From positions 1 to 64,000 of IMG/VR virus record IMGVR_UViG_3300043571_000443: DNA of 64,000 nt. The stretch is one strand, 5' to 3'. Below the pieces are notes generated by a model, which searched no databases, was not told the origin of the DNA, and saw only the letters and a program-made list of their open reading frames with translations. A program made the position numbers and the translations under genes. This stretch comes from a virus. Shown here piece by piece: positions 6,066-15,017 of the stretch. Each line of letters opens with the position of its first letter. Position 1 is the first letter of the stretch.

Positions 6066-6547
6066 CCCACTTCGGTGGGGGTTTCTCGAGCGGCAAATCC
6101 CACTTGGTAAACCAGTTGATTGCCTCGCAAACACCTCCCCACTTCGGTGGGGGTTTCTCCGTGATGGCTGATCGCAATGTCACCAACCGGGCCGTCGCAA
6201 ACACCTCCCCACCCCGGTGGGGGTTTCTCCCTGGTCTGGTTGGTCGACGACTCGGTAACCACCGCCCTCGCAAACACCTCCCCACTCCGGTGGGGGTTTC
6301 TCCGTGGTAGTGGAGCTGATTAAATTCTGGCTACAGCACTCGCAAACACCTCCCCACTCCGGTGGGGGTTTCTCGGTTAGGGCCAGTTTGCTAGCCTGAC
6401 CCGTCACCTCGCAAACACCTCCCCACTTTGGTGGGGGTGAGTCTTGCCCCTATCGCTCCAGCGTGAAACTGGGCTTGGCATTCCCCACTCTAGTGGGCGT
6501 TCCTCCAGCCCGTACCTATCCTATACCCCACCATCGTGGGAGTTTCC
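6066..6547 (+). CRISPR. Array B: 37-nt repeat CTCGCAAACACCTCCCCACTYCGGTGGGGGTTTCTCC with 32-36-nt spacers and two minimal repeats at the distal end
   Basis: Partial repeat at 6066; full repeats at 6124, 6194, 6267, 6339, 6408; spacers 35, 33, 36, 35, 32 nt; minimal hairpins at 6483 and 6526 separated by a 19-nt spacer. Confidence 0.95.
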
Positions 6548-6583
6548 GCCCTGGCTTTGCCGGGCTTTGTGCGTTTTAGGCGC

Positions 6584-7471
6584 TTAAATATCCACATAGT
6601 CCGAGCTAAACACCCCATTAAAATGAGCATACCTGTCCATTGTGAAGCTTGGCTTGGCGTGGCCTAATTGCTGTGCAATGCTCCACCAGTCGGATCCATG
6701 GGCGGCTGCGGTGACAGCATGGGCATGGCGCAGCCAGTGGGGGCTAGCCTGGGGCTTGCCGATCCTGGCCATGGCGACTTTCACCCATTGCCACGCGATC
6801 AGGTAGGGCACCGGGAATATTTCGTCCTGGTCCAGCGCATCCTCTGGCCGGGCCTGGATCAGCGCATCGTAGACAGCCTTGGAGCAACCGATCTCGCGGG
6901 CCTTGTCGCCCTTGCCGTGGTGGATAGCCAGGAACACCCGCTGGCCTCGTAGGTGCAAGTCACACCACCGCACCGCTAGCGCCTCGCTGGCCCGAACGCC
7001 AGTAGCAAATAGGAAGCGCAGGAATAGCTGGGCCTCCAGGCTAGGTTCCTTGGCAATGGCCCGACGCATCTCGCCTTCGGTTAGGATCCGCTCCGCCATG
7101 ACTGGCCTGGGCTTGCCTAGCCGGTAGACAGCGTGGGGGACATTGAATTGCAGGTAACGAATGGAGCTGCCGAACTTCCACAGCGACTTGATAGCCGCCT
7201 TGTGCAGGTTGCAGGTAGCATCGCTCCAGCGCTTCGGGAACGTGGCCTCATAGTCGATCAGCATGGCCGCTGTGACCATGGCTAGCTGGTGGCAGTCGTG
7301 GTGGGCTAGCCAAGCCCGTAGCCGGGTGATAGCGCGACGGTAGGCTTTCTGGGTGCCAGCACTTCGGGAACGACTGATCCACATCTCGATCAGGTGGTCG
7401 TCGCTACTGGCCTGCTGCAGGGCAAGGCTAGCAGTCTGGGAGGGCTGGGAGGTGACGGTAATAGTATCCAT
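6584..7471 (-). CDS. tyrosine recombinase (XerD-like, with core-binding domain)
   Basis: LFATGVRASEAL, HGKGDKAR, SPHWLRHAH, QQLGH, TMDRY; probable start MDTITV. Confidence 0.92.
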   Translation of the reverse strand: MDTITVTSQPSQTASLALQQASSDDHLIEMWISRSRSAGTQKAYRRAITRLRAWLAHHDCHQLAMVTAAMLIDYEATFPKRWSDATCNLHKAAIKSLWKFGSSIRYLQFNVPHAVYRLGKPRPVMAERILTEGEMRRAIAKEPSLEAQLFLRFLFATGVRASEALAVRWCDLHLRGQRVFLAIHHGKGDKAREIGCSKAVYDALIQARPEDALDQDEIFPVPYLIAWQWVKVAMARIGKPQASPHWLRHAHAVTAAAHGSDWWSIAQQLGHAKPSFTMDRYAHFNGVFSSDYVDI

Positions 7472-7561
7472 GGCTTCAGGGTGCCCACAACTGGATCCAG
7501 CTTGACAAGTTAGCCGGTATAGTATAGGGGAACACTGACTATATCGGCTGGTGGGGGTGGC

Positions 7562-8152
7562 ATGAGCCGGGAAATACGGATCCAAACACAGGAGTTATTT
7601 GCGCGGCTTAGAACCCAACTAAAAGCCGCTGACTATAGGCGTACCCGCGACACCCTGATCCTGATCAACCTGGGGCTGGTGGAGAAGATAGCTGGCCGCT
7701 ATGCCCAGGACGGCGTGGAAGTATTCGAGGATCTGGTGCAGGTGGGAGTGATCGGCCTGATCAAGGCAGTGGACCGCTACAACCCAGCCAAGGGCACCGC
7801 CTTCAGTAGCTACGCCGTGCCCTACATCCGGGGTGAGATATTGCACCATCGCCGGGACCGGGCTGTGACGCTGAAGATACCCCGTAGCTGGTCGGACCGG
7901 TTCACCTTGCTACGGCAGCTCTATGACGAGCGGGCCAGCCATGCCGCCATGGCCAGCGCTACCCGGATCCCGATAGACCAGATCCCGCAGGCGCTCAATG
8001 CGTTGCTACGGCCAGACTGCCTAAGCCTGGATGCACCGCTAGCGGCTGGCTTAACCGACTGCTGGGAGCTACCCGATAGCAGGCCACCGCCAGAGCCAGA
8101 CTGGGAGCCAGAGCCATCCTACGAGGTGAGCTGCTGGGGGCTGGCGCAATAA
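7562..8152 (+). CDS. sigma-70 family factor, SigF/SigB-like, lacking region 4
   Basis: NLGLVEKIA, EDLVQVGVIGLIKAVDRYNP.KG.AFSSYAVPYIRGEILH..RD, LSLDAPL; ends before a region 4 HTH. Confidence 0.88.
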   Translation: MSREIRIQTQELFARLRTQLKAADYRRTRDTLILINLGLVEKIAGRYAQDGVEVFEDLVQVGVIGLIKAVDRYNPAKGTAFSSYAVPYIRGEILHHRRDRAVTLKIPRSWSDRFTLLRQLYDERASHAAMASATRIPIDQIPQALNALLRPDCLSLDAPLAAGLTDCWELPDSRPPPEPDWEPEPSYEVSCWGLAQ

Positions 8153-8176
8153 AAAACCCCTCCTGGGGGAGGGGTT
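8151..8176 (-). terminator. intrinsic terminator between convergent genes
   Basis: AAAAAA-CCCCTCC-TGG-GGAGGGG-TT. Confidence 0.6.
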
Positions 8177-8197
8177 GGAGTGTAGGGTGGCGGTGGC

Positions 8198-8380
8198 CTA
8201 GCCTAGCTGTAGCTGCATGTTGTGGAGTAGGGCGGCTACTTGGTGGTCAGTGAGGTCGTAGCGGGTCTTGGCCTGGCCAACCCAGTAAGCTGGGTCTGCT
8301 TGCCAGGGCTGGCGGGTGAGCCAGCGGGCGGCGTTCCGAAAGGTGGGGGTAGCGGCAGGGGTGGTGGTGAAGGTGGTCAT
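8198..8380 (-). CDS. hypothetical protein
   Basis: ORF with CCACTTACACCGAGGA leader and an upstream promoter. Confidence 0.6.
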   Translation of the reverse strand: MTTFTTTPAATPTFRNAARWLTRQPWQADPAYWVGQAKTRYDLTDHQVAALLHNMQLQLG

Positions 8381-13318: not shown

Positions 13319-13507
13319 ATGGCAACCTATGTTTTTCAGTGGGAAAAAGTTTATTCCCGGGGGATGGTAGAAGGCAGCTCCACTATCCAGATCACCAGCG
13401 GAGACATCCGCATGGGTATCACTGCGGCTCAATTGCAGATCGCTCAGATCCATGCAGTGTCTCCGAACCAAGTCCACATCCGCGACATCCAGCGGATCCA
13501 TGTTTAA
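13319..13507 (+). CDS. hypothetical protein
   Basis: GAGGT RBS; operon context. Confidence 0.5.
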   Translation: MATYVFQWEKVYSRGMVEGSSTIQITSGDIRMGITAAQLQIAQIHAVSPNQVHIRDIQRIHV

Positions 13508-13550
13508 CACCCTGGGGGGAGACTAACCAGGCCACTTACAGAGGAAGACT

Positions 13551-13697
13551 ATGAACACCATCCAACCCGCCGATCTGCCCGTGCCCGCCAGCCAAGGCAT
13601 TGCCAGCCCAGTCGATGCAGCCCTGTTTGCGGTGACTGGTGCCGTTGTGATTGCCATTGCCGCAGCGGAAAACCGGGAGAAAGGCAAGAAAAAGTAA
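13551..13697 (+). CDS. small hydrophobic protein
   Basis: CCACTTACAGAGGA leader; terminator at 13717-13738. Confidence 0.45.
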   Translation: MNTIQPADLPVPASQGIASPVDAALFAVTGAVVIAIAAAENREKGKKK

Positions 13698-13756
13698 GTC
13701 TTTTGCTGCCACCCAAGCCCCGGGCTGGCCGGGGTTTTATCTTGACTCTGGCGAGT

Positions 13757-13819
13757 CCCCACCCTGGTGGGAGTGTTTCAATTTGCAGTTTGCTATCCCA
13801 CTTTGGTGGGAGCAAAACC
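13757..13819 (+). CRISPR. two-repeat mini-array with a 15-nt spacer
   Basis: CCCCACcctgGTGGGA-GTGTTTCA, ATTTGCAGTTTGCTA, TCCCACtttgGTGGGA-GCAAAACC; flanked by terminators at 13717 and 13867. Confidence 0.7.
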
Positions 13820-13909
13820 CAAACGTAAGCAAATTGCGGTAGACTGGATTTGTTAGATGCACTTCAGCCCCGGCCACCCGGGGTTTTTTGTTGTGGGCAT
13901 CCTGGATCC

Positions 13910-14533
13910 ATGGCAACCAAGAAACCCACACCAAAGCTACGATCCAAGCACGCCCCCAAGCCAGCTCCTGGTGCTAGGCGGGGTAACCGGCAGGTGGTAA
14001 AGACTTCCGGCCAGCCTGCTACGCCAGCCTGCAAGGAGCGGGCCTTTGAGCTGTACTGCGAGCTGGGGCCACAATGGGCCGAAATATCTAGGCGACTGAA
14101 GGGCGAAGGCTTTGACCGCTGTGGCAATACGACGATCAGCGGCTGGGCCAAGGCAGGCGACTGGCACGCCAGGAAGCTAGCTATGACTGAAGCGCCAGGC
14201 GAGGCGGCAAAGGTGCCCCACAAGACCAAGGCAGCACCGCCCCCACCGCCAGCGACAGACCTGGGCAGCTACCGCACCAAGAAAACCAACCTGGAGCATG
14301 TCAGGACGGCCATTGAGCAGGTGGTGCAGTCCATCTGTGATGCACGGGCCACCAGCGACCTGCGGGCCATTGGTAGCCTAGCAACGGCGTTGGTAAAGCT
14401 GATTGAACTTGAGGGGAAATTAAGCCCCGCCACGGCAGCCGAACTAGCGGCTAGGGCCGTAGAGCTGGGTATGGATCCAGAACAATTTGTGGCGGCATTG
14501 GCAGAGCAATGGCGGATCGCCAAAGCTGGGTAA
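13910..14533 (+). CDS. putative terminase small subunit (HTH)
   Basis: KERAFELY...EISRRL...TTISGWAKAGDW pattern; preceded by the GGGCA..CT motif. Confidence 0.55.
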   Translation: MATKKPTPKLRSKHAPKPAPGARRGNRQVVKTSGQPATPACKERAFELYCELGPQWAEISRRLKGEGFDRCGNTTISGWAKAGDWHARKLAMTEAPGEAAKVPHKTKAAPPPPPATDLGSYRTKKTNLEHVRTAIEQVVQSICDARATSDLRAIGSLATALVKLIELEGKLSPATAAELAARAVELGMDPEQFVAALAEQWRIAKAG

Positions 14534-15017
14534 GCGCTCCCACGGGGTGGGGTTGCTCAGGGCAAAGAATAACTCCCACGATGGTGGGGTGATCTAGCGA
14601 CCGGAGCGACTCCCACCGAAGTGGGGCTGGGCTGCTGGGTTTGGAAAAACCCCCACCGAAGTGGAGAGGCGTTTGCGAACAGGCCGGGGAGGGGCCGGGG
14701 GCCGGGGCATGGTGGGGAGAAACCCCCACCGAAGTGGGGAGGTGGTTGCGAGTTGTCAAGGCTGACTTTGAAGCTGGCGTGGCGGTCGAGAAACCCCCAC
14801 CGCAGTGGGGAGGTGCTTGCGAGTGTGCTTAGCAGAGCCCTTGATGCCAGCCTAGGCGACGAGAAACCCCCACCGAAGTGGGGTGTGCTTTGCGAGAACC
14901 CGCTGATCGAGGGCTTGACGCTTCGAGACTGGGAGAAACCCCCACCGAAGCGGGGAGGTCTTTGCGAGCAGTTAGGACAAATTGACTCGAAGACGGAAAA
15001 ACCCCCACCGGAGTGGG
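14530..15017 (-). CRISPR. Array C: same 37-nt repeat family as array B plus three distal minimal units
   Basis: Partial repeat 14995-15017; full repeats at 14932, 14860, 14787, 14716, 14643; spacers 26, 35, 36, 34, 36 nt, then 16, 13, 13 nt. Confidence 0.93.

Follow-up and report, generated by a model that had tools for sequence, protein, structure and literature searches.

Two CRISPR arrays, here called B and C, in the phage genome IMGVR_UViG_3300043571_000443 combine guides of ordinary length with very short ones behind a single leader each. Both arrays start with 37-nucleotide (nt) repeats and long spacers and end in minimal units built on the same hairpin. The repeats of long and short units form two genuine classes, built on one hairpin, rather than a gradient, and the arrays show the pattern of true spacer gain, loss and exchange. 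The virus record spans 74,186 base pairs (bp) and has direct terminal repeats, which identifies the genome as complete; the window refers to its first 64 kilobases (kb). We suggest that B and C are genuine composite arrays driven by their leaders, that a single Cas6e would process all units, and that the 37-nt format probably stems from spacer adaptation in trans. We assign this combined explanation a probability of roughly 0.45. The genome under study is denoted G000, its relatives in IMG/VR are G001 to G004, and L numbers designate contigs or loci.

Anatomy of arrays B and C

Arrays B (6065-6541, plus strand) and C (15018-14538, minus strand) share a plan consisting of a leader, a hairpin lacking the repeat extension, five 37-nt repeats with long spacers and, finally, minimal units. 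The array B leader (5990-6064, plus strand) contains TGCTATAGT, which resembles an extended -10 element, at 6016-6024, along with a conserved stretch that runs up to GGTGGA. Hairpins follow at 6065-6080, 6137-6152, 6207-6222, 6280-6295, 6352-6367, 6421-6436, 6483-6498 and 6526-6541. The long block (6065-6444, plus strand) comprises the extension-less first hairpin, the 37-nt repeats at 6124-6160, 6194-6230, 6267-6303, 6339-6375 and 6408-6444, and long spacers of 35, 33, 36, 35 and 32 nt. Each of these repeats consists of the 13-nt extension CTCGCAAACACCT, the hairpin CCCCAC-N4-GTGGGG and the tail GTTTCTCS. The distal block (6445-6549, plus strand) continues with a 38-nt extension-less unit and a minimal repeat bearing the handle GTTCCTCC. 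A 19-nt spacer (6507-6525) comes next, and the closing hairpin has a degenerate tail, GTTTCCGC.

Array C reads in the opposite direction from a leader at 15019-15095 (minus strand), in which leader alignments place an extended -10-like motif at 15059-15067. Hairpins start at 15018, 14955, 14883, 14810, 14739, 14666, 14626, 14589 and 14552. The long block (14667-15018, minus strand) again consists of an extension-less first hairpin and five 37-nt repeats, with long spacers of 26, 35, 36, 34 and 36 nt. The extensions vary more here and include CTCGCAAAGACCT, ..AAGCACA, ..AGCACCT, ..ACCACCT and TTCGCAAACGCCT. Four minimal hairpins make up the distal block (14530-14666, minus strand), with spacers of 16, 13 and 13 nt and the handles GTTTTTCC, GTCGCTCC and GTTATTCT; the first of these hairpins also closes the last long spacer. 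The last tail of array C is degenerate and overlaps the stop codon of a convergent open reading frame (ORF) at 13850-14533. In both arrays, the long units have a period of 69-73 nt and every spacer is different, as is generally expected of CRISPR arrays.

The hairpin CCCAC-N3-5-GTGGG occurs 47 times in the 74-kb genome, compared with 5.7 times in shuffled sequences. Copies are clustered, and within one cluster the identical flank always lies on the same side. The 13-nt extension is present in nine copies against 1.4 expected and is confined to arrays B and C within the window. Every unit, whether long or short, carries an 8-nt tail of the form GTNNNTCN directly 3' of a 6-bp stem. Most long units have the tail GTTTCTCS, and the tails of short units include GTGGATCN, GTGAGTCN and GTCTGTCN, among others. 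A distal minimal unit thus comprises a 16-nt hairpin, the 8-nt GTNNNTCN handle and a spacer of 12-19 nt. Both classes have the makings of a Cas6e-type substrate, with a 6-bp CCCCAC/GTGGGG stem, a small loop and the 8-nt tail directly after the stem. An earlier note, made by reading this DNA, had described 37-nt repeats followed by spacers of 19 nt in B and of 16, 13 and 13 nt in C. Its coordinates and counts were right, and so was its view of the 37-nt repeat as a 13-nt extension placed on a common hairpin. The ending ATTGAAAC, which it had assigned to the short units, was wrong given the tail found in all units.

Two repeat classes on one hairpin

Across G000, three related genomes and the contigs, the distance from hairpin to hairpin is bimodal, with values of 20-33 nt versus 45-63 nt. 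Without the 8-nt handle, the lengths of short spacers cluster discretely at 12-16, 19-21 and 23-25 nt, and long segments cover 37-55 nt with a mode at 47-50 nt. A 6-nt length lattice is visible among short units and unclear among long ones. The classes also differ in sequence. Among de-duplicated units, the handle GTTT[ACT]TC is found in 67 of 87 long versus 9 of 97 short units (p = 5e-22), the loop that follows has the sequence TTCG or TCCG in 52 of 87 versus 8 of 97 (p = 3e-14), and a GCAA-type extension is present in 69 of 87 versus 2 of 97 (p = 8e-31); these p-values overstate the difference because units are related by copying and not independent, yet the split is clear nonetheless. The earlier note's proposals of a shared hairpin scaffold and of two guide formats in one array are both borne out, as the same hairpin recurs in all units and two genuine repeat classes lie on what appears to be one leader-driven transcript.

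Recurrence and spacer turnover among relatives

The composite layout of B and C recurs in G001, G002, G004 and 12 metagenome contigs. Close relatives in IMG/VR are G001 (72.8 kb), which is collinear with G000 along its whole length, interrupted only by a gap of some 2 kb where the contig ends, and G002 (77.5 kb), which is likewise collinear and a complete circular permutation relative to G000. Both are thus essentially of full length. Further relatives in this database are the fragments G003 and G004 as well as L002, L003, L005, L009 and L010. The 12 short metagenome contigs were retrieved with the long-repeat pattern, and each contains a phage leader or trailer. Judged by their identifiers only, some appear to come from a freshwater lake series. 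A megablast search of 16 kb against GenBank phages produced no match.

Leader-bearing arrays A, B, C and D of G000, its relatives and the contigs mostly have long units first and short units last; exceptions are L073, L074 and array A of G000, in which short units precede long ones or are mixed with them. The relatives and metagenome contigs contribute 87 unique long spacers of 24-42 nt (mode 34-37 nt), with a G+C content of 58% against 57% for the phage. Spacers near the leader differ among G000, G001, G002, G004 and L064-L075, and distal units are shared. The array B distal block is kept in G001, G002, G004, L064, L067, L069, L070 and L071, and array C short units are common to L068, L073, L075, G002 and G004. 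The leader-proximal block of 37-nt repeats with 24-42-nt spacers hence turns over quickly, and the distal block is slow-evolving. Subsets of long spacers are shared among variants in mosaic order, which indicates that recombination also contributes to the observed turnover. Short clusters differ between relatives at the same site, and after cas5e only the last 19-nt unit is common.

Several further observations concern array variants and short units elsewhere. The array B variant at L071 163-300 has one long spacer twice in tandem, through duplication of the spacer-repeat unit. One short unit is repeated three to four times in L004 and L005. Leaderless short-class clusters lie directly 3' of genes at 2791-2879, 4618-4858, 8663-8676, 23410-23501 and 62442-62689 in the window, and more such units follow genes at genome positions 70608 and 73535-73610. 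Array D is a two-unit remnant in G000 (13718-13810) and of full length in relatives, namely at 22362-22855 in G002 (L017), 12620-12924 in G004 (L020) and 7647-7476 in G001 (L012). Two array D spacers of G002 match, with 0-2 mismatches over 16-27 nt, a site located in G001, G002 and G004 some 270-400 bp upstream of array D. Such matches may reflect self-regulation of the array.

Leaders, orientation and transcripts

Arrays A (623-252, minus strand), B and C have a leader of about 60 nt in common, as shown by alignment. Within it, GTGCTATAGTGG is invariant among 19 aligned leaders from relatives and could represent an extended -10 element (TGnTATAGT). A scan with the sigma-70 consensus found no full -35/-10 pair, hence the array promoter is a putative one. 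Handle position, leader position and the end with the most diverse spacers give a consistent orientation. The reverse orientation, in which the repeat would end in ..TTTGCGAG, is ruled out by the leader, the promoter-like motif, the polarity of spacer diversity and the 3' GTNNNTCN tail present in all units. Minimum-free-energy folding of both putative whole transcripts (z = -3.1 and -3.5) yields the repeat hairpins. As no promoter-like motif was seen between the long and short blocks, a single leader-driven transcript per array would be the simplest reading. Just before the array B leader, a terminator-like hairpin with a 9-pair stem followed by a T-run (5960-5981, plus strand) ends the upstream operon.

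A mini type I-E module and an optional type IV cassette

The earlier note's premise of two cas complexes matches the gene content of the phage, which carries a mini type I-E module and a type IV-B-like module with its own I-B-family Cas6. The mini type I-E module consists of Cas6e (2210-2821), Cas7e (2917-4170) and Cas5e (4163-4609), all on the plus strand and recognized by PADLOC (E = 9e-33, 3e-69 and 9e-41, respectively). Cas6e has PDB matches to Cse3/CasE. All three genes are present in every full-length relative, with 69-96% identity in G001 and G002 according to tblastn. No close relative of Cas7e was found in the genome contigs searched. Profiles of Cse1 (PF09481), Cse2 (PF09485) and Cas3 (TIGR01587) had no match in G000-G002, where a diverged large subunit is possible. 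Cas1 (PF01867) had no match in the five phage records G000-G004, and Cas2 went undetected as well, with no separate search aimed at it. The ORFs flanking cas6e at 674-1738 (minus strand) and 1566-2210 (plus strand) have no significant Pfam or PADLOC match; they are conserved in G001 and G002 with 81-90% identity.

The type IV-B-like cassette (53245-58005, minus strand) encodes Cas11, Csf2, Csf3, a PF09559 Cas6, a small ORF, a CysH-like gene and Csf1. PADLOC supports Csf1 (3e-27), Csf2 (5e-40), Csf3 (2e-42) and Cas11 (2e-5), and the CysH-like gene matches PAPS_reduct (1.5e-10). The Cas6 lies inside the operon and belongs to the I-B family (PF09559; 8fcj_B, E = 1.5e-19). Closer relatives of this Cas6 exist at 50-80% identity, and a scan of genome contigs recovered only relatives at 30-38% identity. 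In looking for the surroundings of such Cas6 relatives, no arrays were seen on L006 and L027-L029. No DinG or RecD helicase was found among the ORFs scanned, although no test was aimed at them; HerA and NurA are encoded upstream of the operon. Near the operon there is no second repeat family, and the gap 3' of cas6 is taken up by a promoter and the small ORF. This near-consensus sigma-70 promoter (TTGACA, 17 nt, TATATT; 55020-54985, minus strand) lies right after the cas6 stop and precedes the small ORF of about 98 amino acids (aa) and the cysH-like gene.

The cassette is part of a 9.3-kb block in G000 (53150-62437) that also contains NurA, HerA and a methyltransferase and is located just downstream of a short-unit array. 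The block is replaced by unrelated cargo of 4.3 kb in G001 and 2.4 kb in G002, which contain a Bro-N protein and unknown ORFs but no cas genes. G001 and G002 have no match to PF09559 Cas6, Csf1, Csf2, Csf3, Cas11 or CysH, nor to any RAMP profile. Their arrays nevertheless contain five to eight long units each, in which the spacers are their own but extension, handle and loop are the same as in G000. Long units thus persist and diversify in genomes that have neither the type IV effector nor its Cas6, and the type IV cassette is optional cargo that is dispensable for array maintenance. A different insert precedes cas11 in L002/G003.

Searches for targets and hosts

No protospacers of the long spacers were detected among the relatives that were fetched, where matches stayed at chance level. 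Arrays B and C had no protospacer beyond chance among GenBank phages, and two exact 24-mers retrieved none from IMG/VR. Short spacers matched the phage's own genome no more than shuffled controls did, and two conserved 19-nt spacers have no second site in it. Three repeat patterns searched against GTDB genomes found no host array and only chance single matches. TerL is only about 50% identical to that of phages of unrelated hosts. A match to a Lake Mendota Luteolibacter contig was considered as a lead to the host and turned out to be unrelated.

A model for the composite arrays and its alternatives

We propose that each array would be transcribed from its leader into one precursor CRISPR RNA (pre-crRNA), which the phage Cas6e would cut at the 3' base of every hairpin. 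Each product would consist of the 8-nt handle, the guide and a 3' hairpin, so that long and short CRISPR RNAs (crRNAs) would arise side by side. A backbone of Cas5e, multiple Cas7e and Cas6e could assemble on crRNAs of both lengths, with the length of the RNA setting the Cas7 copy number, predicted at about eight on long RNAs and two to four on short ones. The CTCGCAA-N6 extension, uniform GTTTCTC handle and TTCG/TCCG loop of the long class probably result from the copying of one template repeat with each spacer addition. Under such copying, these features would not constitute an address label for type IV. The machine adding the spacers would act in trans and require a repeat of about 37 nt with 35-nt spacers, a geometry similar to type I-B. 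Short units might be older and have drifted within the limits of processing, as defined by the stem and the GT..TC tail. The type IV-B-like cassette, when present, may use the same RNAs. Given that no Cas3 was found, the probable outcome would be binding or silencing; cleavage would call for the recruitment of host factors.

Several points weigh against this explanation. The cleavage sites, the extent of the transcripts and the loading of the RNAs are all predictions from sequence, and the searches found neither a host array with the phage repeat nor a protospacer. In every array, leader sequence (..GGTGGA) and not the 13-nt extension precedes the first hairpin, a pattern that integration at the leader end with duplication of the first repeat does not predict. 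A 37-nt repeat with 34-37-nt spacers fits the geometry of PF09559 Cas6 arrays and not that of type I-E (29 and 32 nt). The type IV cassette carries such an I-B-family Cas6, and a link between the long units and this enzyme is possible. With Cse1, Cse2 and Cas3 undetected, a working mini I-E complex on 48-nt or 13-nt guides is conjectural. A division of labor in G000-type phages or the use of long guides by a host effector are hence possible.

Such a division of labor was the core of the earlier note, which held that the extension or handle sorts RNAs between complexes. Long crRNAs would reach the type IV-B-like complex through the I-B-family Cas6 and Csf3, and minimal units would be taken into the mini I-E complex by Cas6e and Cas5e. 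This arrangement would suit the gene content of G000, with Cas6, Cas5 and Cas7 genes present twice each, as well as the three linked features setting the classes apart and the presence of Cas11 in the type IV module with none in mini I-E. In addition, three cyanobacterial loci with relatives of the type IV Cas6 adjoin arrays with a 36-nt repeat and a 70-73-nt period, which resemble the long units. However, the partner repeats at these PF09559 loci (GTGCTCAACGCCTTACGGC...) have no sequence likeness to the phage repeat, and their hairpin, as read from the printed repeat, lies 17 nt from the 3' end instead of directly before an 8-nt tail. A canonical I-E-type array at L034 560-1000 (GTDB contig JAUWMK010000261.1), with a 29-nt repeat and a 60-61-nt period, has the repeat ..CCCCACG-CAT-GTGGGG-GTTTATCG and so combines the phage stem with a GTTTATC handle, which places the long-class handle within I-E usage. 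This array lies directly 3' of a gene end that, read by eye, appears Cas6e-like; the contig is AT-rich and binned as Promethearchaeum, an archaeal assignment that looks doubtful. At 62689-62495, the array closest to the type IV block consists of short-class units, short units are interspersed with long ones in L073 and L074, and G001 and G002 keep long arrays with unique spacers without the cassette. These findings argue against the proposed tie between long units and type IV, and we regard sorting of this kind as unlikely. A variant in which the repeat itself is the signal appears improbable as well. Here, CTCGCAA-N6, a UUCG-type loop and GUUUCUC would mark full-length guides for a Csf or host complex via an I-B-family Cas6, and bare hairpins would mark 13-19-nt guides for mini-Cascades with two to three Cas7.

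The long units might instead serve the host, with a host adaptation module supplying spacers to a host I-B- or III-like effector directed against competing elements, and only the short units serving the phage mini I-E complex. Cas1, Cas3 and a large subunit were not found in the phages, spacer lengths are as broad (24-42 nt) as in I-B and III arrays, and spacer G+C content is close to that of the phage. Precedents exist in the acquisition in trans by type IV-A3 (bioRxiv 10.1101/2023.06.23.546257) and in viral mini-arrays using host systems (PMC11656645). Yet the repeat is absent from bacterial and archaeal GTDB representatives, and all 12 repeat-bearing metagenome contigs have a phage leader or trailer, leaving a host-run array a doubtful prospect. 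The distal short units could also be no guides at all and act as repeat mimics, similar to RNA anti-CRISPR decoys for a host I-E system, or as processing or stability elements at transcript ends. The same minimal units are scattered after genes genome-wide, short units have no self-targets, and solitary viral repeat units are known to inhibit CRISPR-Cas (PMC10651486). Against such roles stand the discrete lengths of the short spacers, the conservation of several of them between relatives while loops vary, the occurrence of different short spacers at the same site in different relatives, and the phage's own Cas6e, Cas7e and Cas5e. We consider a non-guide role quite improbable. Ordinary decay, with distal units as degenerate trailer repeats of a normal array, is highly improbable. 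Terminal repeats are degenerate in many arrays, and the very last tails of B and C are too. The other distal units, though, have perfect stems and GT...TC handles, their spacers are two to three times shorter rather than mutated, their class includes about 100 units elsewhere, and these distal units are conserved across relatives.

Relation to known systems

The repeat of the Thermus thermophilus type I-E system has a CCCCAC/GUGGGG stem. The phage units resemble type I-E Cas6e substrates in having a 6-bp G+C stem with a loop of 3-4 nt, followed immediately by the 8-nt tail, and Cas6e, Cas7e and Cas5e are present. In contrast to type I-E, phage repeats measure 37 or about 24 nt instead of 29 nt, and spacers 24-42 or 12-25 nt instead of 32-33 nt. 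The arrays are moreover phage-borne with four or more per genome, and Cse1, Cse2, Cas3 and Cas1 were not detected. Some type IV systems rely on co-resident type I systems for arrays or adaptation (Pinilla-Redondo et al., PMC7038947), and type IV-A3 acquires spacers in trans (bioRxiv 10.1101/2023.06.23.546257). Similarly, the phage cassette is a nuclease-less effector on a mobile element, lacks adaptation genes and has a Cas6 captured from type I, in line with the polyphyletic origin of type IV Cas6 (PMC7038947). Unlike in array-borrowing type IV systems, the cassette is dispensable for array maintenance in relatives. Type IV-B is reported to lack Cas6 and arrays normally, with rare exceptions (PMC7038947), whereas the phage cassette, with CysH and Cas11 and no recognized DinG, includes a PF09559 Cas6 in a genome that contains arrays.

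Viruses are known to carry CRISPR mini-arrays (reviewed in PMC11656645) and solitary repeat units expressed as Racr RNAs (PMC10651486). Like these, the phage has virus-borne repeats with no Cas1 detected, and its short clusters and single units are dispersed in the genome. Unlike viral mini-arrays, its arrays comprise as many as 12 units and come with a leader and cas genes of their own, no host genome searched contained the repeat, and no spacer matches related viruses. CreA of the CreTA system is a crRNA-like regulatory RNA with a short or partial spacer. Repeat-like regulatory elements have also been described (bioRxiv 10.1101/2023.03.03.530964). Like such regulators, the phage has repeat-flanked guides far below normal length in a nuclease-less or nuclease-independent setting. 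Unlike them, its guides have no complementary site in the phage genome, and dozens of units exist, on a transcript with full-length guides. The literature searched on these known systems does not describe two repeat classes on one leader-driven array. Arrays B and C extend known phage-borne CRISPR arrays by a composite layout found across a phage family.

Other features of the genome

The genome encodes a MuF-like protein, a collagen-like fiber, an M15 peptidase, a serine recombinase, a tyrosine recombinase and a TerL-like protein. The tyrosine recombinase gene (6584-7585, minus strand) converges on array B, and the ORF at 13850-14533 (plus strand), which has no Pfam match, converges on array C. 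Given these convergent genes, read-through could generate antisense array RNA or antisense RNA to the ORF. A repetitive region at 20328-20562, inside a 1348-aa ORF (17640-21686), consists of two tandem copies of a 115-120-nt unit that are 90% identical, and the G001 contig ends within the corresponding region. No Rfam family was detected within the window.

Implications

If the anatomy of the arrays reflects their function, guides of ordinary length and guides of 13-19 nt would be produced from one transcript with one Cas6e-type hairpin. A Cascade stripped to Cas5, Cas6 and Cas7 would then handle both guide lengths. Such phages would provide a natural system for how crRNA length relates to complex size, for the function of ultrashort guides and for spacer gain with neither cas1 nor cas2 detected in the element. 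The type IV-B-like cassette with its own Cas6 is a rare case for tying type IV-B function to defined RNAs. Relatives with and without the type IV cassette offer a ready natural comparison.

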